Shown here: positions 7,191 to 58,811 of the stretch, in pieces
Layout of the letters: each line of letters opens with the position of its first letter
Numbering within the stretch: the stretch's first letter is position 1
Assembly (NCBI GenBank): GCA_965659595.1
Contig: CBFHWN010000001.1
Coordinates: 9,139 to 73,138 of the forward strand
DNA: 64,000 nt
Reading direction: 5' to 3'
Source: an uncultured Ilumatobacteraceae bacterium
GTDB lineage: Bacteria > Actinomycetota > Acidimicrobiia > Acidimicrobiales > Ilumatobacteraceae
The notes under the pieces: model-generated
Told to the model about the DNA's origin: nothing
Databases searched by the model: none
Seen by the model: only the letters and a program-made list of their open reading frames with translations
Made by a program: the position numbers and the translations under genes

Positions 7191-7198
7191 CGGTCCCC

Positions 7199-16473: not shown

Positions 16474-17364
16474 ATGTCCGAGATCCCCCGATTCGACCGA
16501 TCGTCGTCGGCCACCGAGATCGTCGAGGCCTTCCGCACCGCTGGCTGTGCCGTGATCGAACGGCTGGTCGACCCCGAAGTGGTCGATCGGGTTCGCGGCG
16601 AGATGGATCCGCACATCGCCGCCACGCCCACCGGCGGCGACGACTTCTCGGGTCGCAACACCACCCGAACCGGCGCCTTGCTCGCCCGTTCCCGGTCGAG
16701 TGTCGACATGGTGGCCAACCCCCTCGTCCTCGAGGTGGCCGAGAGCGTGCTGTCCCCCAATGCCAGCAGTTTCCAATTGCACCTCACCCAGATCATCGCG
16801 ATCGGTCCCGGTTCGACTGAGCAACCACTGCACCGAGACCAGTGGTGCTTCGACTTCTTCCCGTTCCCCGAAGACATGGACGTCGAGGTCTCGACCATCT
16901 GGGCGCTCGACGACTTCACCGAGGAGAACGGTGCCACCCGCATCATTCCCGGTTCGATGCTCGACCCGAAGGAGGCGTGCGCCGATGTTCACCGGGCGGT
17001 TCCGGCGACGATGCCGAAGGGTTCGGTCGTGTTGTACAGCGGTCGCACCATCCACGGAGGCGGCGCCAATCGCTCCGACAAGATTCGTCACGCGCTGAAC
17101 GTCGACTACGTCCTCGGTTGGTTGCGACAAGAGGAGAACCAGTACCTGTCGTGCCCGCCCGACGTGGCGCGCACGTTGCCCGAGCGAGTGCAAAAGCTCG
17201 CCGGCTACGCGCTCGGTGCCTACGCACTCGGCTACGTCGACGACGTCCGCGATCCGCGCGACTTCCTCGCCGGAGTGTCGGGAACGTCGTCGTTCGGCGG
17301 CGACACGATGGGCAACGCGCACTTCGGAGGCGCGTCGTTCAGCTCGCCGAACGATCCACGCTGA
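16474..17364 (+). CDS. Phytanoyl-CoA dioxygenase (PhyH)-family Fe(II)/2OG oxygenase
   Basis: 296 aa with HRDQ (HxD) and a distal HGGGAN. The N-terminus is typical of PhyH-family proteins. Confidence 0.78.
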   Translation: MSEIPRFDRSSSATEIVEAFRTAGCAVIERLVDPEVVDRVRGEMDPHIAATPTGGDDFSGRNTTRTGALLARSRSSVDMVANPLVLEVAESVLSPNASSFQLHLTQIIAIGPGSTEQPLHRDQWCFDFFPFPEDMDVEVSTIWALDDFTEENGATRIIPGSMLDPKEACADVHRAVPATMPKGSVVLYSGRTIHGGGANRSDKIRHALNVDYVLGWLRQEENQYLSCPPDVARTLPERVQKLAGYALGAYALGYVDDVRDPRDFLAGVSGTSSFGGDTMGNAHFGGASFSSPNDPR

Positions 17365-17367
17365 ACA

Positions 17368-18222
17368 TCACGCGATCAGGACGGCTTCGTCACCGACCGA
17401 GAAGGTTCCCGGCTTGACGATGCGCGCGTACGCACCGACGTTCTGATCGAGGTCGCGCACGATGTGGCGCAAGATGGCCCGATCCTCCGGAACGTCGTCG
17501 TTCACGGCCTGAGTGACCATGACACAACGCGGGCACGGTCCGATGAACTCGAACTCGGCAGTACCGATCGTCATTCGACGGCCCGTCCAGCCGAACTCCG
17601 GATGGCCGACTTCATCGCCGGTGTCGATCACGAAGTTCGGCCGGAAACGGCGCACGTCGACCACCGAGTCAGGAACCGCATCGGTCAACGAACGCAGAGC
17701 CGACGTGGTCATGATCATGAGCGGCCAGCAGTCGTAGTACGTGCCGGGCGGCGATTCGAACTCCATGATCACCGGCGGAAACTGACCAAGATCGGGCAGC
17801 GGTTCGTCGTCGTCACGTCCGAAGATCGATCGCAACTCCGCCATCACGTCGTCGGAATCGGGACGGCCGCGACGGTAGTGATCGAGATCACCGGCCGGAC
17901 GCAGATGCTGTAGTGCCACCTGCCGTCCGAGTTCGTCGCTCAGCACTGCATCGAGATCGAGATCGTCGGTCGTGAATCGGCGTCCGTCGGGAAACTCGAT
18001 CTCGACGACGTCGTCGACTCCACGAGCATCGGGATCGACACGACGGGCGGCCAGGCGCATGAGCCCACCGATCTTCTTCGCACCGCGAATTCCACCACTG
18101 TCGAGATCGCGAACGGCCCAGATGCGATCGCCCACCAGGCCGAGTTCGTCGAGTACGGCCGAGTCGACCGTCCCGCCGATCATCGACTTGACCGGGTGAA
18201 TCCAGATCTGTGAGACGTGCAC
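17368..18222 (-). CDS. MOSC domain-containing protein (N-terminal beta-barrel + MOSC)
   Basis: The N-terminal IWIHPVKSM and the conserved Cys context GPCPRCVMV. Confidence 0.85.
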   Translation of the reverse strand: MHVSQIWIHPVKSMIGGTVDSAVLDELGLVGDRIWAVRDLDSGGIRGAKKIGGLMRLAARRVDPDARGVDDVVEIEFPDGRRFTTDDLDLDAVLSDELGRQVALQHLRPAGDLDHYRRGRPDSDDVMAELRSIFGRDDDEPLPDLGQFPPVIMEFESPPGTYYDCWPLMIMTTSALRSLTDAVPDSVVDVRRFRPNFVIDTGDEVGHPEFGWTGRRMTIGTAEFEFIGPCPRCVMVTQAVNDDVPEDRAILRHIVRDLDQNVGAYARIVKPGTFSVGDEAVLIA

Positions 18223-18235
18223 GACGACAGCTCGG

Positions 18236-19453
18236 TCAGCGCTGCGTGCCGACCTTCAGGTCCTTGAAGGGCATGTCCTTGTCGACCATCGGTTCACGGG
18301 GCAAGCCGAGGACTCGGTCACCGATGATGTTCTTCTGGATCTCGTCGGTCCCGCCGGCGATACCGGACTGGAAGCTGTTGAGGAGTCGCTTCGACCATGC
18401 TTCTCCGCGGCTCGACGTACCTTCCCAGGCATCGGTCTCGGGACCGACGAGTCGACTGATGAGCGGGCGCATCATCCAGGCGATGCGCGAACCGTGCAAC
18501 TTACCGAGCGAGCCGCCGGGTCCCGGCACACGTCCGGCCTTCATCTCGGCGCGGGTGCGCATGGCAACCAACGACTTGGTGGTCTCTTCGCTGTAGAGCT
18601 TCATGAGGTCCTGGCGAACGACCGGATCGGAGATCTTGCCGTTCTTCTTGGCCACTTCGATCAGGCCGTCGGCGAGCGTGTGGGTAACACCGCTCGTGGA
18701 TCCGGTACCGATGGCCACGCGCTCGAACATGAGCATGGCCGTCGCCTGGTTCCAACCGTTGTTGAGCTCGCCGAGTAACCACGACTTCGGGATGCGCACG
18801 TCGGTGAGGAAGATCTCGTTGAAGTGCTTGCCGCCGTCGATCTGGTGAATCGGACGAATTTCGACACCCGGGGCCTTCATGTCGATGATGAACATCGAGA
18901 TTCCGGCGTGCTTGGGGGCTTCTGGATTGGTGCGAGCGATGATCACGCCGTACTCGCACACGTGCGCGAGAGTCGTCCACACTTTCTGGCCGTTGAGGAC
19001 CCACTCGTCGCCGTCGAGCTCGGCCTTGGTTTGCAGACTCGCTACATCAGATCCGGCACCTGGTTCGGAGAACATCTGACACCACATCGTGCGACCGGCG
19101 ATGTTGTCGGGCATGAACTGCTTCTTCTGCTCCTCGGTACCGAACTGGTTGAGAACCGGAAGGCACATACCATGGCTGATGACCAACTCGTAGGTCATGT
19201 CGGGACACGTGCCGTATTCCTCGCGGTAGATGCGCTCGTGTCCCTTGGTGAGTCCGGCGCCGCCGTACTCAGTCGCATAGGTGAGACCGGCCAACCCGGC
19301 CGCCGCGAGCTTCTGCTGAAAGGCACGTCCGGTCTCGATCGAGTTGACGCCCCGTTCGCTGCCCGTCGCGTTCTGGGCGAGAAATTCGCGAACTTTGGCG
19401 CGGAAGGCCTCGGTATCGGCCGGTGACAACGTCTCTTCAGTAGCAGCACTCAT
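18236..19453 (-). CDS. Acyl-CoA dehydrogenase
   Basis: 405 aa with the typical ACAD N, middle and C-terminal layout. The C-terminal IAGGTDEIQKNIIG lacks the YEG catalytic Glu position. Confidence 0.9.
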   Translation of the reverse strand: MSAATEETLSPADTEAFRAKVREFLAQNATGSERGVNSIETGRAFQQKLAAAGLAGLTYATEYGGAGLTKGHERIYREEYGTCPDMTYELVISHGMCLPVLNQFGTEEQKKQFMPDNIAGRTMWCQMFSEPGAGSDVASLQTKAELDGDEWVLNGQKVWTTLAHVCEYGVIIARTNPEAPKHAGISMFIIDMKAPGVEIRPIHQIDGGKHFNEIFLTDVRIPKSWLLGELNNGWNQATAMLMFERVAIGTGSTSGVTHTLADGLIEVAKKNGKISDPVVRQDLMKLYSEETTKSLVAMRTRAEMKAGRVPGPGGSLGKLHGSRIAWMMRPLISRLVGPETDAWEGTSSRGEAWSKRLLNSFQSGIAGGTDEIQKNIIGDRVLGLPREPMVDKDMPFKDLKVGTQR

Positions 19454-19522
19454 GGCCGAATTCTGCCACTGGCCACCCCTCGACAGCCCTATCGGAGGTC
19501 GTGACGGGGATCTCGCCCGAGG

Positions 19523-20731
19523 TCAGAAGCGGACCGGCATCGAGTGGATACCGGCGATGAAGCTCGAATGCATGCGCTCGGCCACGCCATTGGATTCGAG
19601 ATGAGGCATTCGAGTCAGGATTTCCCGGAACATCACCATCAACTCCACTCGAGCCACGTGCATACCGAGGCACAAGTGGGGACCGCCCGCGCCGAAGGCA
19701 ACGTGCGGGTTGGGGTCGCGTGCGACGTCGAATTCGTCAGCCCGATCGAACACGTCCTCGTCACGATTGGCCGATCCGTAGAACATCACCACTCGATCGC
19801 CCTTCGGAATCTTCTGACCACGAATTTCGACGTCCTCCATGACGGTGCGCTTGAAGTGGGCCACGGGGCTCGTGTACCTGAGCATCTCTTCGATCGCCGT
19901 CGGCAGTAGTCCGTCGACATCAGCCATCAACTTCGTTCGTTGATCGGGATGATCGAAGAGGAGTTGCATCCCAGCGGCCAGCAGATTACGAGTCGTATCA
20001 CCTCCGGCGTTCACGAGCAGAAGGAAGAACCACTGGAACTCGGAGTCGGTGAGGCGATCGCCGTCGATCTCGGCTTCTACGAGAAGGGTCGCCAGATCGT
20101 CGCTCGGATTCGAGCGTTTGAAGTCGGCCACCGACTGCGCATAGCCGAGCATCTCCCCGATCGCGGCCATCTTGACCTCGGGCGGTGCGACGGTGTCGTC
20201 GTTCGTGTGCATGATCTCGGTGAGGTCGTAGAGACGTTCGCCATCGACGCGAGGCATCCCCATGAGTTCGGCGATCAGCCCGGACGGAAGACGGCCGGCG
20301 ATCTCGCTCACGAAATCGCACTCACCACGTTCGATCACTGCGTCGACAATCTCGCGTGCGAGTTCTTCGATGCGAGGACGCAACAAAGGCGCGTTCTTCG
20401 GGGTGAAACCGCGGCTCACGAGCAACTTGAAACGATCGTGTTGCGGTGGATCCATGTTGAGCATCATCTGCCGACCGGCGAACAGATTGGCCTCGTCGGG
20501 ATCGGGAAGCATCGACGTCTTCTCGTACGAACTGAAGATCTTCGGCGAGCGGCTCACCGTCTTCACGTCGTCGTACTTGGTGAGCGCCCAGAAACCCGGG
20601 CCGCTCTCCGGTGGCTCGTGGTGCCAGAAGACGGGCTCGTTGGCTCGCAACCAGGCGTACTGTTCCCACGGGTGCCCGCGCTGGGCGAACACCTCGGGCG
20701 AGATCAGGTCGATCTGTTCGGCTGTGATCAC
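19523..20731 (-). CDS. Cytochrome P450
   Basis: Heme loop FGAGGPHLCLGMHVAR, ExxR in EEMLRY, and I-helix LLLVNAGGDTT. The GTG start is preceded by GGGAGGGG. Confidence 0.92.
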   Translation of the reverse strand: MITAEQIDLISPEVFAQRGHPWEQYAWLRANEPVFWHHEPPESGPGFWALTKYDDVKTVSRSPKIFSSYEKTSMLPDPDEANLFAGRQMMLNMDPPQHDRFKLLVSRGFTPKNAPLLRPRIEELAREIVDAVIERGECDFVSEIAGRLPSGLIAELMGMPRVDGERLYDLTEIMHTNDDTVAPPEVKMAAIGEMLGYAQSVADFKRSNPSDDLATLLVEAEIDGDRLTDSEFQWFFLLLVNAGGDTTRNLLAAGMQLLFDHPDQRTKLMADVDGLLPTAIEEMLRYTSPVAHFKRTVMEDVEIRGQKIPKGDRVVMFYGSANRDEDVFDRADEFDVARDPNPHVAFGAGGPHLCLGMHVARVELMVMFREILTRMPHLESNGVAERMHSSFIAGIHSMPVRF

Positions 20732-20765
20732 GTTCCCCTCCCGAACGCGTCGAAACGTCGTGAGT

Positions 20766-22325
20766 TCAGGGTCCGACGACGTCGGCGAACTGGACGCGCA
20801 GATCCTTCTTCAGTGCCTTGCCCGACGGATTGCGCGGCACGACGTCGACGAAGCGCACCGCCACCGGCTGCTTGAAGCGTGCCAACTTGCCTTCGCAGTG
20901 GGCCAGCACGTCGGCCTCGGTGAGTGCGGAATCCTTCTTCACCACGATCGCGAGCGGCGACTCGCCCCACTTCTGCGAAGGGATGCCGATGACCGCCGTC
21001 TCGGTGACACCGGGGTGACTCATGATCACGTTCTCGATCTCGGCCGGGTACACGTTCTCTCCACCCGAGATGATCATGTCCTTGATGCGGTCCTGGATGA
21101 AGACGTAGCCCTCCTCGTCCATGATTCCGCCGTCACCGGTGTGCAGCCAGCCGTCCTTCAGAGCATCAGCGGTGGCGTCGGGACGATTCCAGTACCCGAG
21201 CATGATGTGGCCGCCGCGCACGAGAACTTCACCCGATTCGTTGGGGGCACATTCGGTGCCGTCAGGGCGCACGATCTTCACGTCGGAAAGGAAGAAGCTC
21301 TTGCCCGTCGATCCAGCCTTCTCGAGTGCGTCGGCCGGCATCGTCACACAGGCTGGACCACACGTCTCGGTGAGTCCATACACCTGGCTGATCTCGATAC
21401 CGATCTTGTAGTACGCCTCGATCAAGGGAACCGGGACCGGCGCCGCCCCCGTCAACAGCCATCGCACATGTTCGTGCTTGTGCTTCGCAGGGTCGTGCAC
21501 GAGCAACATGAACTGAAGCATGGCCGGAACGAGGAGTCCGTTGTTGATGCGCTCCGAGTCGATGAGTTCCCAGACCTTGGTCGGGTCGAACGCCTTCATG
21601 AGAACGTGAGTTCCACCGATGAAGATCGTGCCGAGTGCCGGTGTGAGGGCACCCACATGGAACATGGGCATCGGGTTGATGTAGCGATCGCCCTGTCCGA
21701 GATCGGCCGTCGTGCACATGGTGGCCAAAGCCCAGTACTGCGTGTCGTGCGAGTGCATGACACCCTTCGGCAAGCCCGTCGTGCCCGAGGTGTACATGAT
21801 GTAGAGGAGGTCGTCACCCGATGCCGTGACCGGCGGTTCGATGGGCTGTTCCTTGGCCGACTCGGCCACGTAGTCGTGCGCGAAGTCGGGCTTGTTCGCC
21901 GCCGATCCGACGTAGAGCCACGCACTGACGTCGGTCTTGGAGCCGCGCGACTGCAGGTCGACGGCGACCGGTGCGAACTCTTCACCGAACACGAGTGCGG
22001 TGGTGCCCGAGTCCTTCAGGATGAACTCGAGTTCGTCGGCGACGAGACGCCAGTTCAGCGGAACGATGACCGCGCCGAGTTTTGCCGTGGCGAAGAACGA
22101 CGTGAGGTACTCGGCCGAGTTCATGAGGAGAAGGCCGACGCGGTCGCCTTTCTTCACTCCGGCGCGCATCAGGAGCTGCGCGGCTTTGTTGGTCTCGGCG
22201 TTGAGTTCGGCATAGGTGTACCGGCGCTCGGCGGCGACGTCGTACAAGGCCTCCATCTTCGCGTTCACGTGAGCGCGGCGGGCGAGCAGATTTCCGATGT
22301 TGATCGCTGTCGTCATACCCGACAT
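20766..22325 (-). CDS. AMP-dependent acyl-CoA synthetase/ligase
   Basis: AMP-binding motif YTSGTTGLPKGVMHSH, plus TGDGG and a C-terminal PRNPSGKALKK. Confidence 0.9.
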   Translation of the reverse strand: MSGMTTAINIGNLLARRAHVNAKMEALYDVAAERRYTYAELNAETNKAAQLLMRAGVKKGDRVGLLLMNSAEYLTSFFATAKLGAVIVPLNWRLVADELEFILKDSGTTALVFGEEFAPVAVDLQSRGSKTDVSAWLYVGSAANKPDFAHDYVAESAKEQPIEPPVTASGDDLLYIMYTSGTTGLPKGVMHSHDTQYWALATMCTTADLGQGDRYINPMPMFHVGALTPALGTIFIGGTHVLMKAFDPTKVWELIDSERINNGLLVPAMLQFMLLVHDPAKHKHEHVRWLLTGAAPVPVPLIEAYYKIGIEISQVYGLTETCGPACVTMPADALEKAGSTGKSFFLSDVKIVRPDGTECAPNESGEVLVRGGHIMLGYWNRPDATADALKDGWLHTGDGGIMDEEGYVFIQDRIKDMIISGGENVYPAEIENVIMSHPGVTETAVIGIPSQKWGESPLAIVVKKDSALTEADVLAHCEGKLARFKQPVAVRFVDVVPRNPSGKALKKDLRVQFADVVGP

Positions 22326-22335
22326 CGTGTCACAG

Positions 22336-22347
22336 GAAACCGGTTTC
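22336..22347. promoter_or_regulatory. Perfect 12-bp palindrome GAAACCGGTTTC, 10 nt upstream of the CoA-ligase start
   Basis: Read directly from the sequence. It lies in the 36-nt gap between the lipoprotein stop and the ligase ATG. Confidence 0.25.
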
Positions 22348-22361
22348 GGGTAGAGCCGGGC

Positions 22362-23951
22362 TCAAGGAAGCGGATACCCCGCGGCCGAGGCCTTCACCGC
22401 ATCGGCGTCCTCGGGCAGGATCGCACCGTTGGCCACGGCGCTGTCGACCGCTGCATCCCACTTCGCCCGGAAGTCGGCTTTGTCGGCGTACAGGCTGGCC
22501 AATTGCTCGTCGGTGAACGAGGCCGTAGTGCCGAACAGTCCGCAGAAGCTCTCACCCGACTGGCCGAGACCCGACAACGCGGCTACCGGTACATCGACAT
22601 GGGGAGTACGAATGCCACCGAGGGCATTGCCGTTCGCGTCGAGTTCGTATCCGGTGAGATCGGCGTTGGCCTCCAACTTCGGTGTGGAGGCTGGAGCCAC
22701 TCCGGTGCGAACCCAGTTGTCGAGGGCGCGCACCGCAGCGCGCAACACGTACGTGTGCGGACCGGCATTGATCGGCTTCTCACAGGTCACGATCCCGAAG
22801 TACACAGAAGAAGGAGCGTCGAGCATGGCCGCGAACAGTGCATCGTCACCTCCACCGTCGCCGGTATCGGTCTCGCTGATCCCGAGGCTGTACGCGTCGG
22901 CGTGGGCGGTCCCGGTCACTTCCCAACTGCGGAAATTGTCGGTCGCGGGCTGTTCGGCGCGGCGATACCCGAGGCGGTCACCCACCACGTCGGTCTCGGC
23001 CGAAAACACCAGAACCGGACGTCCGACATCGCGGATCTGCGCGATCTCGGGTCCGGTCACGCTCGGTCGCGGCTCGGAGAGCAGATTGGCGGCACGGGCT
23101 CCGCGACTGTGGACCAGATACGCGTGGTACACGTCGTGAAGCGGTGCAAGCGCATTGATGTAACTGGTGAGTCGGAACGCCGATTGCGACTCACCAGCCG
23201 CGATCACGCGCTCGGGTGTGAGGCCGCCGAGCAGTGTCGACGACTCGTTCCACACGAGAGCACCTATCTGGCTGAACATGTCGTAGCTGTAGTCGTCGCC
23301 GGGATGATTCAACGTTTCGTACCGTTCGGGGTCGGCAATCTTCAGCACCCGTGGTGCCCCGGTCGGATTGCCGCCGCCTTCCACGCCGACGCGCTGGGCC
23401 GAGACACCGACCCACACCATGCCCGAACGCAAGATCTCGTTCTTGGCCAGATCGAACGACGGCGACACGTCGAGGCCGGCCGTCACGTTCAGCCACTCGA
23501 CCATGACGGTTCCGTTGAAGCGGGCCGGATCTTCCGGCGCGCGCACCACGATGCGCGTGGCGTAGTCGGCGGTGTCGTGCGGAGCGACGGACCACTCGCC
23601 GTCGGTCGAGAGTTCGGTGTCGGACGTATAACTCGACGCCGTGCCGCGCACGAAGAATTCGTTCTCGGTGTATTCCCACGTCGTCACGTCGAACGGGCTG
23701 ACTCCGAGGACCACTTCGCCGAGCCCACCGGTGATCGGACCTTCGATGGCCGCCGCCGCCACGTCGGTGAGAGTCGGCCTCGTCGGCGCGTACGGGGCCT
23801 CGCTCGTGGTGGTGGTCGGCGCCTCGGTAGCGACCGGGGCCACCGAGGTCTCAGTTGCCACGGTCGGAGCCACCGAATCGCTGGATCCACCGTCGTCACC
23901 ACCACACGCAACAAGGAGCAGGCAAACAGCGGGGATCAAGCGTCGCATCAT
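22362..23951 (-). CDS. Secreted lipoprotein, possibly an alpha/beta-hydrolase-like enzyme
   Basis: Lipobox MMRRLIPAVCLLLVAC|GG after the internal ATG 23951, followed by a Thr/Ala/Pro-rich linker. GESQSA is a nucleophile-elbow-like motif. The function call is weak. Confidence 0.65.
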   Translation of the reverse strand: MMRRLIPAVCLLLVACGGDDGGSSDSVAPTVATETSVAPVATEAPTTTTSEAPYAPTRPTLTDVAAAAIEGPITGGLGEVVLGVSPFDVTTWEYTENEFFVRGTASSYTSDTELSTDGEWSVAPHDTADYATRIVVRAPEDPARFNGTVMVEWLNVTAGLDVSPSFDLAKNEILRSGMVWVGVSAQRVGVEGGGNPTGAPRVLKIADPERYETLNHPGDDYSYDMFSQIGALVWNESSTLLGGLTPERVIAAGESQSAFRLTSYINALAPLHDVYHAYLVHSRGARAANLLSEPRPSVTGPEIAQIRDVGRPVLVFSAETDVVGDRLGYRRAEQPATDNFRSWEVTGTAHADAYSLGISETDTGDGGGDDALFAAMLDAPSSVYFGIVTCEKPINAGPHTYVLRAAVRALDNWVRTGVAPASTPKLEANADLTGYELDANGNALGGIRTPHVDVPVAALSGLGQSGESFCGLFGTTASFTDEQLASLYADKADFRAKWDAAVDSAVANGAILPEDADAVKASAAGYPLP

Positions 23952-24005
23952 GTGTGCGCAACGTAGTCCGCCACCCGGAACGATGTTGGATCGGCGACTT
24001 GATAG

Positions 24006-24021
24006 ATACCCCATAGGGTAT
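24006..24021. promoter_or_regulatory. Inverted repeat ATACCC-CATA-GGGTAT (CsoR/RcnR/CstR-operator-like) in the divergent promoter region
   Basis: Two 6-bp perfect arms in an AT-flanked context (AGATACCCCATAGGGTATATAAGG), 14 nt upstream of the rhodanese ATG at 24035. Confidence 0.35.
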
Positions 24022-24034
24022 ATAAGGTGAACCC

Positions 24035-24460
24035 ATGAACCGCCGACGAATGATCCTCTCCCTCGCTGGACTCACCCTCGCCCTCGGCCCCATGGTTGGC
24101 TGTGGAGGAGACAGCTCGGCCACCCCGGAACAGCCCGCCGTGGCCGCCGACCCATCAAGCACAAACTCTTCAGACGAAGCACCCGCAAAGGACACTCGCA
24201 TGATCATCGACGTTCGCACGCCCGCCGAATTCACCGGCGGCCACCTCGACGGGGCCGTCAACATCGACATCCAGTCCCCCGATTTCGCAAGCCAAATCGA
24301 CGCTCTCGACCGCAATGGCTCCTACGTCGTGTACTGCCGTAGCGGTAACCGCTCGGGGATGGCCATGACCCAGATGCTCGATATGGGCTTCACCGACGTG
24401 AGCAACGCCGGCAGTGTCGAGGAGGCGTCGAACAGCCTCGGTATCGCCGTCGTCAACTGA
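24035..24460 (+). CDS. Single-domain rhodanese (sulfurtransferase) lipoprotein
   Basis: Lipobox LGPMVGC|GG and the rhodanese active-site loop YCRSGNRSG, preceded by DVRTPAEFTGGH. Confidence 0.85.
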   Translation: MNRRRMILSLAGLTLALGPMVGCGGDSSATPEQPAVAADPSSTNSSDEAPAKDTRMIIDVRTPAEFTGGHLDGAVNIDIQSPDFASQIDALDRNGSYVVYCRSGNRSGMAMTQMLDMGFTDVSNAGSVEEASNSLGIAVVN

Positions 24461-24462
24461 TC

Positions 24463-25176
24463 ATGTCCGAGTCGCGCATCGTCGTCCAAAGGGCCGACTC
24501 TCGACCGCACACGAACATCTCGTGGCTCGACAGTCGGCATTCGTTCAGCTTCGGATCGCACTGGGATCCGAACAACACCGGGCATGGACTCCTGCTCGTC
24601 AACAACGACGACGTCGTGCGCGCTGGTAGTGGATTCGACACGCATCCCCACCAGGACATGGAGATCGTCACCTGGGTCCTCGACGGTGAACTCGAGCACA
24701 AGGACAGTGAAGGCAACCGCGGACTCCTCTACCCCGGTCTCGCGCAGCGCATGTCGGCCGGCACGGGTATCTGGCACTCCGAAATGAACCCGAACGGCGA
24801 CACCGACGTGCACTTCGTGCAGATGTGGGTGCTTCCCGACACTGAACGGGTCGATCCGAGCTATCAGCAGCTCGACATCAACAGCGAACTCGCCAAGGGT
24901 GGCCTCGTGCCGATCGCATCCGGGAAAGGTCACGACGCGGCCATCAGCATTCGTCAGCGCGACGCCATCCTGTGGGGCGGACGTCTCATGGCCGGAGAGA
25001 CCGTTCGCGTTCCCGACGACCGACACGTCCACATGTTCCTCGCTCGTGGTTCGGCGTCGCTCGATCACGCCGGTGAACTCGCAACGGGCGATGCTGCTCG
25101 GCTGTTCTCGGTGGGCGACATCGGTCTCGTGGCTGGTGACGACGGCGCCGAGGTGCTCGTCTGGGCCACGGCCTGA
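24463..25176 (+). CDS. Pirin-family protein
   Basis: Cupin metal motif HPHQDMEIVTWVLDGELEHKDS and the typical length (237 aa). It starts 3 nt after the rhodanese stop. Confidence 0.9.
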   Translation: MSESRIVVQRADSRPHTNISWLDSRHSFSFGSHWDPNNTGHGLLLVNNDDVVRAGSGFDTHPHQDMEIVTWVLDGELEHKDSEGNRGLLYPGLAQRMSAGTGIWHSEMNPNGDTDVHFVQMWVLPDTERVDPSYQQLDINSELAKGGLVPIASGKGHDAAISIRQRDAILWGGRLMAGETVRVPDDRHVHMFLARGSASLDHAGELATGDAARLFSVGDIGLVAGDDGAEVLVWATA

Positions 25177-25206
25177 GGCCCGAATCACGGCAACTACTGT
25201 TCGTCC

Positions 25207-25617
25207 ATGCCCAACCAGCACTCAGCCGAGGCCGCCGTCGCCGCCCACGTCGACGCTTGGAACTCGATGGATCGCGACAGTTGGGTCGGGCTCTTCTCTC
25301 CTGACGTGGTGTTCGAAGATCCGGTCGGCGCACCACCAAAAGTGGGCCTCGATGCGGTGCACAAGACGTGGGATCGCTCGTTCACGCCGGGTCGTCGATG
25401 GACTCTGCATCCTCGACAGATCGTGGCCGGAGGTGACGTGGAGGCCGCCGTCGTCATGCACAACGTCGGCGAACTCGACGACAAACGCGTGGAAGTGAGC
25501 AGTGTCGAAATCTTCTCAGTCGATACGAACGGCCTCATCGTGCGCATCCGAGCGTTCTTCGATCAGCCGACCGAGTTCACTCTCGCCGACTGGTTCACTC
25601 CCGAACGCTCGGAATGA
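25207..25617 (+). CDS. NTF2/SnoaL-like (ketosteroid-isomerase-like) protein
   Basis: 136 aa. The N-terminal AAVAAHVDAWNSMDRDSW...DVVFEDP pattern is typical of SnoaL-like folds. Confidence 0.72.
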   Translation: MPNQHSAEAAVAAHVDAWNSMDRDSWVGLFSPDVVFEDPVGAPPKVGLDAVHKTWDRSFTPGRRWTLHPRQIVAGGDVEAAVVMHNVGELDDKRVEVSSVEIFSVDTNGLIVRIRAFFDQPTEFTLADWFTPERSE

Positions 25618-25626
25618 TCCTCGCCA

Positions 25627-26391
25627 TCAGACGGTGAGTGTGTTGATGAAGATCTGCCACGCGAGAGCCGACTTCGCCGTGAGACTCAGGATCAGATACA
25701 CCTTCTCGCCGAAGAGGTAGTCGGCCCACTTGCCGATGCGCTTGTACTGGAGCCACTGGTTGAGAGCGAAGCAGTTGAAGAACACGAAGATGCTGGCGAA
25801 GATGCCGTAGACGAAGTTCGGCATGTCACTGCCAGGACCGATGAGGTAGATCAAGAGTCCGATCCACGGTGCCACTCCGGCGATGCAGCCGAACCAGAAC
25901 GGCGCCCACCACACTTTCTTGCCCGGCTCGTTGACGACTTCCATCACCCAGCCGAACAGGATCATCGCCACGTTGGCGCCCGCGATGGCGATGAGCCCGG
26001 CCACGTCACCGATCCCAAAGATCATGGCGATGAGAAGGATCATCAGAGTCGACGACAACGAGTACTCGACCCAGCGGAAACGATTCACTTCTCGTTCGAG
26101 TCCGGCCACGTAGCGAGAGCGGCCCCATGGCGATGCGACGAGCACGTGAAAGATTGCCGACAGAATCAGGAAGCCGAAAACTCCGTACGCAATACGTACG
26201 TCGAAGAGGCGATCGAGTCGTTCGATGTCGAGCCGACCATTGGGTGCGTCGTTCCAGAAGAAGCTCGTGACCGGAAGTGTGAAGTCGTTGGCCGCAACCA
26301 ATACGACGACGGCCTGAACGGCGTGAAGGACTGCAGCTCCGACGTTGAGTCGCTGGAGTCGTGACTGCCTTGCCTGATCGATTGTCGACAT
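25627..26391 (-). CDS. Heliorhodopsin (7-TM retinal-binding protein)
   Basis: 254 aa, near-colinear with heliorhodopsin 48C12 as I recall it. Shared blocks include ANDFTLP, FRWVEYSLSS (counterion Glu109), ILFGW, PFWFGCIAGVAPWIGLLIYLIGPGS, FFNCFALNQWLQYK and LSLTAKSALAWQIF (Schiff-base Lys240, codon 25674-25672). His23 and His82 are retained. GAGGAGG lies upstream of the ATG. Confidence 0.9.
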   Translation of the reverse strand: MSTIDQARQSRLQRLNVGAAVLHAVQAVVVLVAANDFTLPVTSFFWNDAPNGRLDIERLDRLFDVRIAYGVFGFLILSAIFHVLVASPWGRSRYVAGLEREVNRFRWVEYSLSSTLMILLIAMIFGIGDVAGLIAIAGANVAMILFGWVMEVVNEPGKKVWWAPFWFGCIAGVAPWIGLLIYLIGPGSDMPNFVYGIFASIFVFFNCFALNQWLQYKRIGKWADYLFGEKVYLILSLTAKSALAWQIFINTLTV

Positions 26392-26484
26392 GAGTACCTC
26401 CTCGGTCCGAGGTCGAGCCTACGGAATTCGTGGTGTCGGCGAGTTCGAGAACGAAAGATCGACCACCTCTGTTACCGTTCTCGC

Positions 26485-28392
26485 GTGACTCTCGACATCA
26501 GCCAGAAGGACGCCACCGTCCACACGTCGTCGTTCAATCGCTCACGGGAGTTCAATCTCGACCCGGCCGACTTCGATCGAGCACAGCGAGGCTGGATCGC
26601 CTCACTTGCCGACGTTCACGTGCGCGACAACGAAGGCCGAACGGCGAGCAACATCGGGCGCTACGACTTCCTCCACGACGACTACCCCGACACCGTCCAC
26701 CCAAGTCTGTGGAGACAGGCCCGCCTCAACGCCCATCACGGTCTCTTCGAGGTGGCCGAAGGCGTGTGGCAGGTACGCGGCTACGACATCTCCAACATCA
26801 CGTTCGTACGCGGCGAAGAGGGATGGATCGTGATCGATCCACTCACGGTGGAAGCGACTGCTCGGGCTGCCTACGACCTCGTGACCGAACACCTCGGCCA
26901 TCGTCCGGTCACCGCCGTCATCTACACCCACTCGCACGCCGATCACTTCGGCGGCGTTCTCGGTGTCACCTCACAGGCCGACGTCGATGCCGGCAAATGT
27001 CGGGTGATCGCGCCGGTCGGATTCCTGCATGAGACAGTCGGCGAGAACGTCATCGCCGGCGTCGCTATGGGTCGGCGCGCCACCTACCAGTTCGGACCTC
27101 TCCTTCCGAGTGGACCCAAAGGGCACGTCAACTGCGGACTCGGACTGTCGATTCCGGTCGGGCCCCCTGGACTCATCGCACCCACCGAGGACGTCATCGA
27201 AACGGGTGAGATCAAGGTCGTCGACGGAGTTCGCATCGAATTCCAGCTCACACCCGAGACCGAAGCGCCGGCCGAGATGAACTTCTTCTTCCCCGACCAG
27301 GGGTGGTTGTGCATGGCCGAGAACTGCTCGCACACCATGCACAATCTCGTCCCGATCCGAGGAGCGCTGGTGCGCGACTCGTTGTCGTGGTCGAAGTACA
27401 TCAACGAAGCGATCGAACTGTTCGGTTCGCGCACCGAGGTGATGTTCACGTCGCACAACTGGCCTCGTTGGGGAGCCGACGACGTGCACGGGTTCTTGTC
27501 TCTGCAACGCGACATGTACCGCTGGATCCACGACCAGACCATGCGACACGCGAATCTTGGTTTCACCCCGCTCGAGATCTCTGAACATCTGGAACTCCCC
27601 GAGGAGTTCCTCGCCGAGACCCACACGCGCGGCTACTACGGCGACCTCGTGCACAACTCGAAGGCCGTGTACCAGCGCTATCTCAGTTGGTACGACGCCA
27701 ACCCGGCCAACTTGAACAAGTTGCCACCGACCGAAGCCGGGAGGCGTTATGTCGAATTGGCCGGCGGACCGGCCGCGTTGCTCGTCACAGCTCGGCGCGC
27801 CTTCGACGCCGGCGACTATCGCTGGGTCGCCGAACTCGTCAACCATCTGGTGTTCGCCGACCCTTCCAACGAGGAAGCTCGATCGCTCCAGGCCGACACT
27901 CTGGAACAACTCGGCTACCAGAGTGAGTCGACCACCTTCCGCAACGCGTATCTCATGGGCGCGCAAGAGCTCCGGCACGGCCCCCCACAACTAGGAAATT
28001 CCACCGTCCGTGGTCGAGGCATCCTCGCCGCCATGACGATCGAACAGATCTTCGACACTCTTGCCGTCCGACTGAAGGCCGAAGCCGTCGTCGGGGTGAA
28101 ACTTTCGGTCAATTGGACCTTTCCCGATCTGACCGGAAGCCTCGACGAGAAGTGGGTGCTCGCGGTGTCGAATCGAACGATGTACTCGGTACGGGGACGA
28201 CACGACGACGATGCCGTTGCAACTCTTCGACTCGATCGTTCACTGTTGATCCGGATCATCACTCAGGAGACGTCGTTCGTGGACGAGATCGGTGCTGGGA
28301 ACATCATTCTCGACGGGGATGCTGGTGCGCTGTTGACGGTGTTCGGCAACCTCGACGTTTTCATGGGCGGCTTCACCATCGTCGAACCCTGA
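26485..28392 (+). CDS. MBL-fold alkyl/aryl-sulfatase (SdsA1-like: MBL + dimerisation + SCP2-like domain)
   Basis: MBL motif [11 protein letters not shown]. The length (635 aa) and the C-terminal region are typical of type III alkylsulfatases. Confidence 0.85.
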
Positions 28393-28420
28393 AAGTGACG
28401 CCCTCTGGTTGAATGGGGAC

Positions 28421-29836
28421 ATGACGTCACTGGCCGAAAACGACAACGTTTCCACTCCGACTGCAGTCTCCTCCATCCCGGGCATCGTGGCCGGAGTGCG
28501 CCACACCTTCGGGAGCCGGGTCACCCGACCGCTGTCGTGGCGTAAGAAGCAGCTCGAGCGCATGATCGCCATGCTCGAAGAGAACGAGTCTGCATTCTCA
28601 GATGCCCTGGCCGCCGATCTCGGCAAGCCGGCCATCGAGGGCTACATCACCGACATCGCATTCGTCATCGGTGAAGTGAAATTGATGTTGAAGAACCTCC
28701 GTCGCTGGAACCGACCCGAGCGCGTGCGCACACCCGTGGTCGCCATGCCGGCATCGTCGAAGCGAATTCCCGAACCACTCGGAGTCGTCCTCGTGATCGC
28801 CCCGTGGAACTATCCGGTTCAGCTTCTGCTCGTTCCGGCCGCCGGCGCGATCGCGGCCGGCAACGCCGTCGTCATGAAGCCCTCCGAAGTGTCGTCGGCG
28901 ACCTCGGCCCTTCTCGCCCGACTCGTTCCGAAGTATCTCGACTCGTCGGCCATCGCTCTCGTCGAAGGGGACGTTCCCGAAACCACGGCCTTGCTCGCTG
29001 AACGCTTCGACCACATTTTCTATACGGGCAACGGAACCGTGGGCCGGGTGGTAATGAGAGCGGCCGCCGAGAACCTGACTCCGGTGACTCTCGAACTCGG
29101 CGGCAAGAGCCCGACCATCGTCCACTCGTCGGCCGATCTCGAGGTGAGCGCCAAACGGATCGCCTGGGGCAAGTGGCTCAATGCCGGACAGACCTGCGTG
29201 GCTCCCGACTACGTCCTCGTCGAAAAAGCCGTCGAAACGGAGTTCGTCGATCACCTCCGGGCGGCCATCACCGAGTTCTACGGAGACGACCCGCGCACGA
29301 GCGGAAGTTTCGGGCGCATCGTGTCGGACCGACACTTCGATCGCCTGACCGCTCTCATAGCGGGGGGCCACGTGATCGTCGGCGGTGACACCGACCGCGC
29401 CGAGCGCTACATCTCTCCCACCGTCGTCGCCGACGTCGACCTATCGTCACCGCTCATGAGCGAAGAGATCTTCGGTCCGATCCTGCCGATCGTGCCGGTC
29501 GACTCGATTCGCGACGCCATCGCATTCGTCAACTCCAGGCCGCATCCACTCGCTCTCTACGTGTTCGCCGAAAAGAAGTCGGTAGTCGACGAAGTACTCA
29601 CCCACACGACCGCCGGTGGTGTCACGGTCAATGGAACTCTCATGCATCTCACGAGTCCGTATCTGCCCTTCGGCGGAATCGGTGAAAGCGGTATGGGCGC
29701 TTATCACGGTGAAACCGGAGTACGGATCTTCCAGCACCGCAAGCCAGTTCTCTCCCGCAGCACCAAAGTCGATCCATCACTCGCCTATCCCCCCTACACC
29801 GAGCGCAAGGCCAAGATCTTCCGGAAGGTTCTCTGA
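28421..29836 (+). CDS. Aldehyde dehydrogenase (ALDH3-like)
   Basis: ELGGKSP (general-base Glu), [11 protein letters not shown] (catalytic Cys) and [11 protein letters not shown] chose the ATG at 28421 over the TTG at 28409. Confidence 0.9.
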
Positions 29837-29837
29837 C

Positions 29838-30182
29838 ATGGACGTCGTCAACACCGTCCTCAGCATCCTTCTCGCCTTCTTCTGCGCAACGTCGGCCCTC
29901 GCCGACTTCCGCGGCGTTCCACAGATCCTGCAGACGATGGAGCGGTTACGCATGCCGGTTCGTCTCGTGCCGGCTCTCGGAGTGGCCAAACTGGCCGCGT
30001 CGGGTGGCCTTCTCGTCGGACTCGGCATCGAACGGCTCGGCACTTTCACCGCACTCTGTCTGTCGATCTATTTCGTGCTCGCCGTCGGCGCCCACCTTCG
30101 AGTGAGAGATGCTGTCACCGAGACGATTCCAGCCCTCGTGATGCTCGGTCTGAGCGTCGCCACCTTTGCGACCTCGATCTGA
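29838..30182 (+). CDS. DoxX-family small membrane protein
   Basis: 114 aa with four hydrophobic helices. The ATG follows 1 nt after the ALDH TGA. Confidence 0.7.
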   Translation: MDVVNTVLSILLAFFCATSALADFRGVPQILQTMERLRMPVRLVPALGVAKLAASGGLLVGLGIERLGTFTALCLSIYFVLAVGAHLRVRDAVTETIPALVMLGLSVATFATSI

Positions 30183-30188
30183 CCCGAG

Positions 30189-30629
30189 TCAGGCCGACGG
30201 CACCTCGGTGGTGCCACCGCTCATGATGTACTCGATCCACCACGACGGGGCGTTGTCGAGCAGATTTCCGAGATGCGAGTAGTCGTGCCACCGACGGATC
30301 AAACCATCACGAACTTCCATGACCGATGTGAAGGGGTGAACGATGACCTCGCCGGTCGGAAAATGCCATTCCTCTTTGTGCTCGGTGATCACCACGTCGC
30401 CGTCGGCCAACACGAGTCCGGGCACGTGGACCATCTTGGCGGTCGGACCGAGGCCCAGTTCGAGACGCTCGGCGATGGCACGGCCACCCACCACTGGAGG
30501 CACGGCTCCGACATCCATGTACTCGGCGTCGTCGGCGAATTGCCCGGCGACTCCGCTCCAGTCCTTGGCGTACATCATCTCCCAGTGGCGTTCGACGACA
30601 CGTCGATTGGCGTCGGCAGATGAACTCAT
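30189..30629 (-). CDS. NTF2/SnoaL-like protein (limonene-1,2-epoxide-hydrolase-like)
   Basis: 146 aa from the internal ATG 30629, which makes an ATGA overlap with the TetR stop. The N-terminal NRRVVERHWEMMYAKDW pattern is family-typical. Confidence 0.7.
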   Translation of the reverse strand: MSSSADANRRVVERHWEMMYAKDWSGVAGQFADDAEYMDVGAVPPVVGGRAIAERLELGLGPTAKMVHVPGLVLADGDVVITEHKEEWHFPTGEVIVHPFTSVMEVRDGLIRRWHDYSHLGNLLDNAPSWWIEYIMSGGTTEVPSA

Positions 30630-31261
30630 GACTTTCCCTTCTTCGGCGACAGGAGATGACGCAGGGTTTCGATGGCGACGTCGACCCAATGGTTGTCGGC
30701 ATCGGGTTCGCCGCCCACGTCGACGAGAACCCGTCCAACCAGGATCGACTGAACGAAATAGGCGATTCCGGTCAAGTCACCTCGAGGCGCAATGACGCCC
30801 CGATCACGAAGCATGCCGAGCGTCTCGGCCAAGTGGGCCGTTCCTCGGACTTGCTGCTCCTGCAGACTGGAAGCGAGCGCCGGGATGCTGTCGGCAGCCA
30901 CGAGCGACGACAGGCGACGGAGGCGCCGCTCCTGTCCGGCTTCGTCGCCGTCGATTCGCATGGCGAATTCGATAACCCCCAGAACCTCGTCGAAGTCGTT
31001 GGCTTCGAGAAGATACTTCCGCATGCCCCGAAGTTCCGAGGCTTGACTCTCGACCCAGTGCTCGAGCTCGATCGTGGCGATCAGGCCGGCCCGACTTCCG
31101 AAGTGGTGGTACACCGAACTGCGCGCGACACCCGACGATTCGATGACTCGGTCGAGGTTGAAGCGAACCGGGCCGATCGCCTCGAGTTCGGCACGAGCGA
31201 ATTGGAGCACGATTTCGATCGTGGCGAGGCCGTCGGATCTCTTGCGCAGCGGCTCCCCCAT
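30626..31261 (-). CDS. TetR/AcrR-family transcriptional regulator
   Basis: N-terminal HTH block FNLDRVIESSGVARSSVYHHFGSRAGL, with a helical C-terminal ligand domain. Confidence 0.85.
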   Translation of the reverse strand: MGEPLRKRSDGLATIEIVLQFARAELEAIGPVRFNLDRVIESSGVARSSVYHHFGSRAGLIATIELEHWVESQASELRGMRKYLLEANDFDEVLGVIEFAMRIDGDEAGQERRLRRLSSLVAADSIPALASSLQEQQVRGTAHLAETLGMLRDRGVIAPRGDLTGIAYFVQSILVGRVLVDVGGEPDADNHWVDVAIETLRHLLSPKKGKS

Positions 31262-35853: not shown

Positions 35854-37581
35854 TCACCGAGATTCGAGTGCTGCGACCGACTCGACTCGCCAGCCCCGCC
35901 CTGACAACCCGTCGTCCAGCCAGCGCCGCAGGGCCAAGGTGGCTTTCACGTCGTCGGCGTTGTACCGCAGAAGTTTGTCGGCCATCGCCTCTCGATCGGG
36001 GTGATCAGGGTCGCAGGCGATGCGGTACCAGAGGATGGAGTTGGCACCGCCGGCGTCCTCGGCGTCCCAGGCGAACCCCGACAGTGGGGCGAGGTCCTTG
36101 AGGCCGAGCCGACGCGTGGGCCAGTGGAATCGCTTGGCGAGGTCGTGCATGTCGACCCACCAGTCGTTCGCGACCAGAGCACCGATCTGGTCCACTGACG
36201 GAACACCTGGGGCACCATTGGCCCGAGCCGAGGCTTCTTTCATCCGCGGAATCTCGGCGAAGCCGCCCGAATAGCAGTAGACCGCAATGGTTCGCCCCTC
36301 GCTCTCGACACGCTCGACTGTCAGATGCAGCCAGGTCCAGAAGTCGGCGAGTAGTCGGGCCTCGACCTGCGAGTCGGTGCGGTCGTACGAGTGGAACGAG
36401 AGATACTCGCCATCGGTCCAGTGACCATCGGTCGTGCGCTCACTGATCCAACAGCCGTACATGTAGACGATGTCGTCGTTCTCGATATCGAAATCGATCT
36501 CGACGTCGGCGCGTGGCATCACCACCCGCTCGGCGTGACGCTTCAGATAGGGACGGCCGTCGTCGCGCAGGAAAACCCGGGCGGTGTCGATGTGGGTGGC
36601 GAGTTGGGAATAAGTGGGTACCGGATTGTGGTCGAGGTGCACCGGGTCGAGCGCGGCCAACTGCGGAATGGTCTCGATTCCCCCTTCGGCCAATTTGCGA
36701 ACGGCGAGAACGCCGACTCCTTGCAACAGCGACACGTGCTGTTCGGCGACGAGTTCGGACTCGCACACGTCGTGCCAGCGGCACGTCTTGCACTCGTCGC
36801 GATACACGGGCCGGGTGTGCGGTCGGTCGTCGTTGCGAATGGCGAGGACGGCCGCCCAACGCGCCGTCCACTCGGCAGTTGCCTGGGCGAGAAGCGAGTC
36901 CTTGCCCTCGTCGAGCAACCGCCAGGTGACACCCAGACCGCCACCGTCGGGACCGGGGTTGATGGTGCCCCCGACGGGCGGGATCTCGGGCGCGTACCCG
37001 AGGTCGACCAACATCAGCCAGTAGTGCGCGAGTTGCAGACCGTGATCGGACTTCGCCTTTCCCGGTCCGAGCTCGGTGGGAGCGGCCGCTTCGAACCACG
37101 GTTCGGCGAGCGACGACACGGGCCAGGGTCGGGGTTTGGCCGACCCTTCGAGTGGTTTGGAGTTCTTCACGTCGACCGGCAGATAGGCCCACTTGCCATT
37201 GTCCATCTTCTGGTCGCCGAAGCGAACGAGGACGTCGGGACGACCGCCTCGATGTTCGATCACCGGCAGCGACGCACCGATGATCAGACGATCGCCGCGG
37301 ATCATGGCCGCCACCGTGGCCTCGTCGACGTCGTCGAACAGTCGCATCGACGACACACCGTGAAGCCGTGACAACTCGTCGAAGACCTCCGATTCGAAGT
37401 CAAGACCCTCGTCGAAGCGCATCTGCTGCTGATCGTCGACCGGAAGGAGAGCGAGGCCGTCGTAACGCTCGTTGCGGTCGTTGACCTCGCGATGAGCGCA
37501 CCCCACCACGAAACGCGAACCTCCGAGGTCGGAAGCCTCGAGAGCCGAGGAATCGAAGTGGTCAGCGGACGACGAGGCCAT
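35854..37581 (-). CDS. RecB-like nuclease (Cas4-type PD-(D/E)XK with Fe-S Cys cluster) fused to an RNase-H-like (YprB/DEDD-type) exonuclease domain; TM0106-family architecture
   Basis: N-terminal half: GGRPDVLV (Asp), PVDVKNSK (D-x-K), QLAHYW (QxxxY), CKTCRWHDVC (C-x2-C-x5-C) and an N-terminal Cys (VVGCAH). C-terminal half: EIDFDIEND (DxE), YCYSGGFAE and YNADDVKAT. Confidence 0.8.
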   Translation of the reverse strand: MASSSADHFDSSALEASDLGGSRFVVGCAHREVNDRNERYDGLALLPVDDQQQMRFDEGLDFESEVFDELSRLHGVSSMRLFDDVDEATVAAMIRGDRLIIGASLPVIEHRGGRPDVLVRFGDQKMDNGKWAYLPVDVKNSKPLEGSAKPRPWPVSSLAEPWFEAAAPTELGPGKAKSDHGLQLAHYWLMLVDLGYAPEIPPVGGTINPGPDGGGLGVTWRLLDEGKDSLLAQATAEWTARWAAVLAIRNDDRPHTRPVYRDECKTCRWHDVCESELVAEQHVSLLQGVGVLAVRKLAEGGIETIPQLAALDPVHLDHNPVPTYSQLATHIDTARVFLRDDGRPYLKRHAERVVMPRADVEIDFDIENDDIVYMYGCWISERTTDGHWTDGEYLSFHSYDRTDSQVEARLLADFWTWLHLTVERVESEGRTIAVYCYSGGFAEIPRMKEASARANGAPGVPSVDQIGALVANDWWVDMHDLAKRFHWPTRRLGLKDLAPLSGFAWDAEDAGGANSILWYRIACDPDHPDREAMADKLLRYNADDVKATLALRRWLDDGLSGRGWRVESVAALESR

Positions 37582-41429: not shown

Positions 41430-41445
41430 GTGGCGAACGTACCAA

Positions 41446-41463
41446 AGGGGTGTGCGAACCCCT
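41446..41463 (-). terminator. Short GC hairpin (AGGGGT-6 nt-ACCCCT, then TTTGG) between the methyltransferase gene and the nuclease operon
   Basis: A perfect 6-bp stem read from the sequence, followed on the minus strand by a weak T-tract. It may be a weak terminator or attenuator. Confidence 0.3.
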
Positions 41464-41481
41464 GAGTGAAGTCGACGCAGC

Positions 41482-44654: not shown

Positions 44655-44753
44655 ACCCCTCGTACCCCCTGCCACCGGTCCCCGACCGGCGACGCCACGA
44701 GTTTCGCAGATCAGCCCCGGTGGCTCAATGTCGACCCGGGGGAAAGGATCGGA

Positions 44754-58708: not shown

Positions 58709-58730
58709 CGGTAAAACCTCCCCCGTCGCT

Positions 58731-58750
58731 CTCACGGTAGTTCCCGTGAG
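58731..58750. promoter_or_regulatory. Inverted repeat CTCACGG-N6-CCGTGAG in the divergent LLM/ACAD promoter region
   Basis: Perfect 7-bp arms read from the sequence. A related half-site, GTTCGCCGTGA, recurs about 25 nt downstream. Confidence 0.3.
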
Positions 58751-58811
58751 CAGTTGGCCGTCAACGGTTCGCCGTGAACAGAAGCAGTCGAGCGTGATAG
58801 GACAGAAGACC

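Follow-up and report, generated by a model that had tools for sequence, protein, structure and literature searches.

Heliorhodopsin gene and family assignment

The closest described relatives of the heliorhodopsin (HeR) reported here are 48C12, from an uncultured freshwater actinobacterium (structures 6SU3, 6SU4, 6UH3 and 9LJJ), and TaHeR, from the Thermoplasmatales archaeon SG8-52-1 (6IS6, 7U55 and 7CLJ). Partners have been demonstrated for three other HeRs, namely glutamine synthetase for AbHeR (PMC9529153), a photolyase for TfHeR (PMC9769723) and the ABC exporter OmrDE for OcHeR (PMC11109279). The HeR gene studied in this work lies at 25627..26391, on the minus strand of a 64-kb stretch of contig CBFHWN010000001.1 from an uncultured Ilumatobacteraceae bacterium; this whole stretch is hereafter called the window. 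Very probably, the gene encodes a canonical sensor HeR of the 48C12 type, which is transcribed alone and whose partner and retinal source are located outside the locus.

The coding sequence begins with ATG and specifies 254 amino acids, followed by a stop codon. The product matched the Pfam family PF18761 over the complete model (1-242/242), with 322.4 bits against a cut-off of 26.7 (E=2e-96), and the NCBIfam equivalog NF038020, 'heliorhodopsin HeR', with 301.7 bits against a cut-off of 100. In the PDB, it retrieved 48C12 (6SU3/6UH3/9LJJ; E~1e-71), TaHeR (6IS6; E=1e-56) and the eukaryotic Cv06 (9VFC; 6e-46). A preliminary description of this DNA had placed a heliorhodopsin open reading frame (ORF) at these positions, which the two full-length matches above cut-off bear out, and the four diagnostic blocks that it named were found at residues 105–114, 164–182, 204–217 and 235–248. 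The GC content at third codon positions (GC3) of the gene is 0.78, similar to that of the neighbouring genes. It is virtually certain that 25627..26391 encodes a heliorhodopsin of the 48C12 type (group A / subfamily 1), and every defining feature of a group-A heliorhodopsin that can be tested by sequence is found in its product.

Functional residues, fold and topology

The window HeR and 48C12 come from the same phylum and the same freshwater type of habitat, and belong to the same group and subfamily. They are 54% identical over 239 aligned positions, with indels in loops only; these are three short ones in total, the AB loop of the window HeR being two residues longer and its EF loop four residues shorter. 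The window HeR differs from 48C12 in coming from another class (Acidimicrobiia-type; the window has a GC content of 63%) and in being known here from sequence alone. The structurally important residues of 48C12 described by Kovalev et al. 2020 (PMC7049168) were mapped through the 48C12 alignment. This list spans the Schiff-base set, the water-filled Schiff-base cavity, the hydrophobic barrier, the Glu149 region and the pocket walls, as well as the surface polar clusters, Pro40, the Pro172 pi-bulge and the dimer residues. Forty of the 41 key residues are identical in the window HeR, the sole change being Ser113 of 48C12 to Thr115; Val239 of 48C12, two positions before the lysine, is also replaced, by Thr238. 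Across 26 aligned homologues with 64–94% identity, the key positions showed no variation or almost none.

Lys240 (codon AAG, 25672..25674, minus strand), in helix G, aligns with Lys241 of 48C12 and is invariant across the 26 homologues, in agreement with its earlier assignment as the retinal Schiff-base lysine. Glu109 (codon GAG, 26065..26067, minus strand), in helix C, aligns with Glu107 of 48C12 and had been named as the Schiff-base counterion. Alignment to the 48C12 and TaHeR structures upheld both assignments. This single Glu counterion is accompanied by S236, S78 and S113, which are the counterparts of S237, Ser76 and Ser111 in 48C12. The Schiff-base cavity residues H23, H82, N103, Y110, N16, E229, R106 and Y94 are all identical to those of 48C12 (His23, His80, Asn101, Tyr108, Asn16, Glu230, Arg104 and Tyr92, respectively), and the two histidines stand at the positions given for them in the preliminary description.

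The AlphaFold2 model, built on the alignment of the 26 homologues, has seven helices and an AB-loop beta-hairpin with strands at 38–43 and 60–66 (mean predicted local distance difference test score, pLDDT, 84; predicted template modelling score, pTM, 0.81). It superposed on 6SU3 with a template modelling (TM) score of 0.90 and on 6IS6 with 0.88, versus only 0.45–0.67 for type-1 rhodopsin structures, at 11–17% identity. Assignment to the type-1 microbial rhodopsins was considered and rejected given these scores, the lack of a PF01036 (Bac_rhodopsin) match in the Pfam scan of the product, and the presence of Ser236 at the Asp212 position of type-1 rhodopsins. Since lysines and arginines number 13 on the side of the N-terminus and the BC, DE and FG loops versus 4 on the side of the AB, CD and EF loops and the C-terminus, the positive-inside rule predicts a cytoplasmic N-terminus, that is, an inverted topology. 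This predicted orientation agrees with the inverted-topology family to which the protein had been assigned.

TaHeR, ~42% identical by structural alignment, shares with the window HeR the Lys, Glu and His residues as well as the fenestration. It differs in being archaeal, in its loop lengths and in falling within group B, the more diverse group. The viral proton-transporting HeRs (V2HeR3, subfamily 2; PMC9448325) have the Pfam family and the overall fold in common with the window HeR. According to Kovalev 2020 and to a 2025 preprint, the retinal pocket of subfamily 2 is very different, with His at the positions of 48C12 162/166, and its members have neither an Asn138 analogue nor the fenestration motif. 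The window HeR, unlike these, has F165, C169 and N140, and so would not be expected to transport ions.

The retinal-pocket walls and the lateral fenestration motif are retained in the window HeR, with F162, C166, G169, F206, N207 and A210 of 48C12 corresponding to F165, C169, G172, F205, N206 and A209. This motif is the basis of a 'two-antenna' light-harvesting proposal, in which an exogenous xanthophyll would be placed at the lateral fenestration beside the retinal ring, and which is made for 91% of HeRs in the preprint (bioRxiv 10.1101/2025.11.27.691015). The proposed site has aromatic residues at 48C12 positions 162 and 206, small ones at 166 and 210, and Gly169; the window HeR agrees in motif only, with F165/F205, C169/A209 and G172. 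The proposed carotenoid motif is fully kept, the 64-kb window has no carotenoid genes, and such a harvester would suit an organism that lacks pigment genes of its own. However, the absence of crt genes from 64 kb is uninformative about the genome. In addition, the proposal is based, in the available text, on structures, sequence motifs and docking, with no carotenoid-binding measurement reported there, and the use of the absorbed energy is not stated in it, so that it would complement the sensor model and not supplant it. We regard a harvester of this kind as unlikely for the window HeR.

Genomic context and intergenic region

On the convergent side of the HeR gene, Pfam identified genes for a rhodanese (24035-24460, plus strand), a pirin (24463-25176, plus strand) and a SnoaL_2 protein (25207-25617, plus strand), the last with its stop 9 bp from the HeR stop. 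On the divergent side are the genes for an alkyl sulfatase of the metallo-beta-lactamase type (26485-28392, plus strand), which starts 93 bp from the HeR start, an aldehyde dehydrogenase (ALDH; 28409-29836, plus strand) and a DoxX_2 protein (29838-30182, plus strand). Because the HeR gene is separated by 93 bp from a divergent upstream neighbour and by 9 bp from a convergent downstream one, it constitutes a single-gene unit. Strands and gaps thus confirm the earlier statement that the gene is monocistronic and divergent from an alkyl-sulfatase-ALDH-DoxX operon, as Pfam does for the adjoining rhodanese-pirin-SnoaL group (24035..25617, plus strand). Stand-alone helR genes are the majority among those surveyed, with 275 of 448 (PMC11109279, Nat Commun 2024). 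The window is mostly catabolic, including acyl-CoA ligases, acyl-CoA dehydrogenases, P450, PhyH, amidohydrolases and F420 enzymes, and whole-window Rfam and tRNA scans revealed no RNA genes.

AbHeR, TfHeR and OcHeR belong to the same protein family as the window HeR, but their partner genes are in the helR operon, whereas the window helR stands alone between opposite-strand genes. A co-transcribed same-strand partner was not found, both flanking genes being on the opposite strand. Pfam scans of the ~60 called genes of the window detected no glutamine synthetase or photolyase gene, and its two ABC systems, at 6447-9772 and 48846-50605, are both more than 15 kb from the HeR gene. Compared with the ten partner groups of PMC11109279, the only family member within 4 kb is an alpha/beta hydrolase (22362-24014), which is located beyond three opposite-strand genes and belongs to a different family (Abhydrolase_10).

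The divergent intergenic region between the HeR gene and the alkyl-sulfatase operon (26392..26484, 93 bp) was aligned with those of related loci, described below. A Shine-Dalgarno sequence, GAGGAGG (26397..26403, minus strand), is located 5 nt upstream of the HeR ATG and recurs in every locus whose HeR is at least 89% identical. Six such loci (the window, L002, L005, L009, L010 and L031) were aligned, and they share the conserved block ATTCCGTAGGCTCG. TAGGCT (26416..26421, minus strand), ~27 nt upstream of the ATG, is a candidate actinobacterial -10 element (TAnnnT); since the sigma-70 consensus scan was empty, as was the terminator scan, it is put forward from its conservation and the known actinobacterial -10 pattern. 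The HeR gene would then be transcribed alone from a promoter inside this region. An element shared by the two divergent units was also sought and rejected: in the group with at least 89% identity, the alignment presents only the -10-like and Shine-Dalgarno elements, and no conserved palindromic operator was found in it. On the sulfatase side, a sequence of the same TAnnnT type, TACCGT (26473-26478, plus strand), ends 6 nt before the GTG start, and the block GAACGGTAACAGAG around this start (26473-26487, plus strand) is conserved in close relatives. The position of TACCGT 6 nt upstream of the GTG and the lack of a Shine-Dalgarno sequence for the sulfatase suggest that its transcript is leaderless.

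Conservation of the gene neighbourhood

The neighbourhood was compared in 88 related loci (designated L), of which 8 came from exact-protein look-ups of close homologues and 80 from a one-genome-per-species scan spanning 52–94% HeR identity; 17 neighbours from the window were searched against them with tblastn. The whole neighbour block is kept in every locus with an HeR at least 89% identical, with an extra alpha/beta hydrolase gene between SnoaL and pirin in L005 and DoxX absent in L002. Rhodanese, pirin and SnoaL occur as a group with HeR only in these loci; SnoaL alone recurs in L011 (~71%). One lineage with ~70% identity (L006-8, L011, L012 and L013) retains the divergent sulfatase and DoxX genes, and also the AMP-ligase, P450, acyl-CoA dehydrogenase, MOSC and PhyH genes on the other side of HeR. 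This lineage has no rhodanese, pirin or ALDH gene, and SnoaL is lost in all but one of its loci. The divergent gap between HeR and sulfatase measures 69–163 bp across both sets of loci.

Beyond them, 15 other loci with 65–72% identity and enough upstream flank present no sulfatase and no rhodanese-pirin-SnoaL genes; one of these, L032, has a 67% identical ALDH homologue upstream. The ~55 loci below 65% HeR identity present no adjacent sulfatase, and few weak and scattered matches to other genes of the window. When the three genes flanking HeR on either side were clustered in 73 loci without regard to annotation, the largest neighbour family was present in at most 11 of these loci, and the top families were those of the window's own clade.

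The preliminary description had read the neighbours as a possible hint of a light-regulated partner. Two versions were considered: light-activated HeR would either bind and regulate the alkyl sulfatase/ALDH/DoxX products or regulate those of the rhodanese-pirin-SnoaL group, for example in a response to light or oxidative stress. The HeR-sulfatase pair is indeed kept in all loci with at least 89% identity and in the ~70% lineage despite gene replacement on the other side, and a loose link can be drawn from pirin, rhodanese and DoxX to redox stress, which has been reported as a theme in the surroundings of HeR genes. However, the ~70% lineage keeps the whole flanking block too, and the adjacency of HeR and sulfatase is no better than background synteny because the AMP-ligase/P450/acyl-CoA dehydrogenase/MOSC/PhyH block is kept as well. 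The rhodanese-pirin-SnoaL group is confined to the closest loci, with the insertion and the loss mentioned above, and the pairing is missing from both the 15 and the ~55 other loci. Moreover, the genes are on opposite strands, with no co-transcription and no conserved shared operator, and sulfatase, pirin, rhodanese and DoxX are absent from two published surveys of HeR neighbours. Across the 88 loci, no neighbour link extends beyond the window's clade and one syntenic sister lineage, which does not sustain the hint. A local partner is considered very improbable, and the tblastn and clustering results led us to reject the neighbours as evidence for one. The HeR neighbourhood is, from these comparisons of sequence, lineage-level synteny rather than an HeR-specific association.

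A narrower form of the same idea concerns the sulfatase itself, a cytoplasmic type-III enzyme of the metallo-beta-lactamase fold, whose pairing with HeR is found in two freshwater lineages of the Ilumatobacteraceae type. The pairing would place an alkyl-sulfate/aldehyde-detoxifying module under light control, and the route might be a shared bidirectional promoter region or direct HeR binding. If true, a fourth class of partner would join the three known for HeRs, although we give it very little credence.

Within the region, synteny is most stable for the block of PhyH, MOSC, acyl-CoA dehydrogenase, P450 and AMP-ligase genes (16474-24014; L002-L012). In the lineage with an HeR of only ~70% identity, the proteins of this block reach 74–91%, and thus HeR is among the faster-evolving genes of the block. 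The metagenome-assembled genome (MAG) ZLKRG39 contributed two contigs (L012 and L013), each with an HeR-alkyl sulfatase pair, at 70% and 69% HeR identity; the bin may mix strains, or the pair may be truly duplicated.

The catabolic surroundings also bear on the suggestion that HeR is a light-dependent enzyme or a membrane-lipid remodelling factor instead of a sensor. An enzymatic function was hypothesized by Kovalev 2020 from carbonate/nitrate in the Schiff-base cavity, and fatty-acid modification was proposed by Chazan 2021. The cavity residues are all kept in the window HeR, and lipid/isoprenoid catabolic genes (acyl-CoA ligases, acyl-CoA dehydrogenase, P450, PhyH and ALDH) surround it. These genes are, however, ordinary actinobacterial content and not linked to HeR outside the lineage; DegV and DUF2177, which are statistically HeR-linked in a published survey, are absent from the 64-kb window, and no enzymatic activity is reported for any HeR in the cited literature. 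Such a role is judged improbable here.

Retinal and carotenoid genes

Pfam scans of the ~60 called genes of the window gave no match to SQS_PSY, Amino_oxidase, polyprenyl_synt, BCD/Blh, RPE65 or Bac_rhodopsin. The window contains no gene for phytoene synthase or desaturase, geranylgeranyl diphosphate (GGPP) synthase, Blh, carotenoid oxygenase or type-1 rhodopsin, and NCBIfam and PADLOC scans of its unannotated ORFs yielded no retinal or carotenoid gene. Uncalled gaps are shorter than 600 bp, except for one that contains an F420-dependent LLM oxidoreductase gene. The single Lycopene_cycl match (18.7 bits, below the cut-off of 23.4) falls in 42096-44675; a lycopene cyclase at this position was rejected as a Rossmann-fold cross-match in a flavin-monooxygenase/esterase fusion.

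The lack of crt and blh genes in the 64 kb, as noted previously, was therefore corroborated by these scans; the importance implied for it was not, given that the rarity of blh beside HeR is already published. In a survey of thousands of HeR loci, Chazan et al. 2021 (bioRxiv 10.1101/2021.02.16.431466) found blh to be rare among HeR neighbours, and genome-wide co-occurrence of HeR and blh mostly where another microbial (type-1) rhodopsin is present. Similarly, Candidatus Actinomarinales have HeR and a proton pump without retinal synthesis genes (PMC7771536), and a freshwater actinobacterium without blh still produces retinal by an unknown route (PMC7734400). The absence of retinal genes beside HeR is the usual state for heliorhodopsins. 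A 64-kb window cannot represent a genome of several Mb, and since blh is rare near HeR, it is uninformative on the retinal supply of the genome.

The same absence could be taken to mean that the product is a colourless apoprotein without retinal and that the gene is functionless or decaying, the more so as some rhodopsin-bearing actinobacteria have no blh (PMC7734400). Against this, retinal synthesis or uptake has been demonstrated in actinobacteria without blh (PMC7734400), and many related MAGs and metagenomes retain the HeR gene, for which 6013 homologues were counted at E<1e-10. Purifying selection on the gene is indicated by its intact ORF and by functional residues that are invariant in the 26 homologues (64–94%). 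We consider a decaying or functionless gene extremely unlikely.

Proposed mode of action

By analogy with characterized members of the family, the canonical 48C12-type HeR of the window would bind all-trans retinal covalently at K240, with E109 as the counterion. It would absorb green to yellow light and pass through a slow photocycle, on the scale of seconds, with no net ion transport. In its long-lived state it may then touch a partner protein directly and so change what that protein does, as other HeRs do with glutamine synthetase, photolyase and the ABC exporter. This partner would be encoded elsewhere and not be identifiable from the window locus. Retinal would be supplied by genes in another part of the genome, by an unknown pathway or by the surroundings of the cell, which is the usual situation for heliorhodopsins.

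Three points weigh against this proposal. Retinal binding, spectrum and photocycle are extrapolated from 48C12 at 54% identity; the candidate promoter elements of the HeR gene come from conservation, the consensus scan having found none; and the physiological role of 48C12-type HeRs is unsettled, with enzymatic, lipid-remodelling and light-harvesting roles all proposed. For the sensor-regulator mode taken by itself, drawn by analogy, we estimate roughly even chances. Nor is the role of HeR more testable from this locus, because the gene is alone, its neighbours are lineage-limited and the absence of retinal genes is normal. The practical value of the window HeR is limited to offering another protein from Acidimicrobiia that could be expressed for spectroscopy or screened for partners.

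Related sequences and host

A protein identical to the window HeR is already present in NCBI and Logan assemblies. Its 90% cluster includes an Actinomycetota MAG protein, and a relative with 94% identity is already named 'MAG: heliorhodopsin HeR [Ilumatobacteraceae bacterium]'. A literature search retrieved no paper joining heliorhodopsin and Ilumatobacteraceae. The window HeR is of a known kind: the equivalog model recognises it, its sequence is public, and a stand-alone locus free of retinal genes is the published norm. It represents one more canonical 48C12-type HeR from an abundant freshwater actinobacterial lineage, and adds little beyond a correct annotation.

The loci with an 89–94% identical HeR and full synteny belong to Acidimicrobiia or Actinomycetota MAGs. 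A monoderm host is indicated by the closest loci, which are from Acidimicrobiia/Ilumatobacteraceae (Actinomycetota) MAGs, and by an F420-dependent enzyme in the window. Some close HeR homologues carry implausible MAG labels: L031, L016, L024 and L033 are labelled 'uncultured Bifidobacterium sp.', L017 and L030 'Acidobacteria bacterium', and L083 'Verrucomicrobiales'. Gene for gene, L031 is fully syntenic with the window, and its HeR is 91% identical, but its label is Bifidobacterium. The oddly labelled HeR-bearing MAGs are probably mislabelled or contaminated bins, and such mislabelling bears on claims of HeR in diderms.

Other genes of the window

The gene at 42096-44675 (minus strand) encodes an 859-aa fusion of a flavin-dependent monooxygenase (Pyr_redox_3/FMO-like, residues ~14-220) and a C-terminal Abhydrolase_3 esterase (629-832). 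This pair of domains would be appropriate for a single chain that first performs a Baeyer-Villiger oxidation and then hydrolyses the ester.

Four ORFs in a row, whose GC3 resembles that of coding sequence, are located at 37580-38314 (plus strand), 38869-40353, 40350-41429 and 41520-41819 (the last three on the minus strand), and had no match in Pfam, NCBIfam or PADLOC. The three longer ORFs have a GC3 of 0.68–0.73, below that of the surrounding genes, and because of this lower value the run at 37580-41819 may be an acquired island.

The F420-dependent LLM oxidoreductase gene in the large uncalled gap is at 57668-58828 (minus strand; TIGR03559, 453 bits). Next to the DoxX_2 gene, a SnoaL_2/limonene-epoxide-hydrolase-like gene (30189-30689, minus strand) overlaps with its 5' end the stop of a TetR gene (30626-31261). 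Finally, a 676-aa protein encoded at 52976-55006 (minus strand) has a weak VWA_2 domain and sub-threshold HemN_C and cobaltochelatase-like matches, and is adjoined by a small adenylate/guanylate-cyclase-domain protein (55074-55619).

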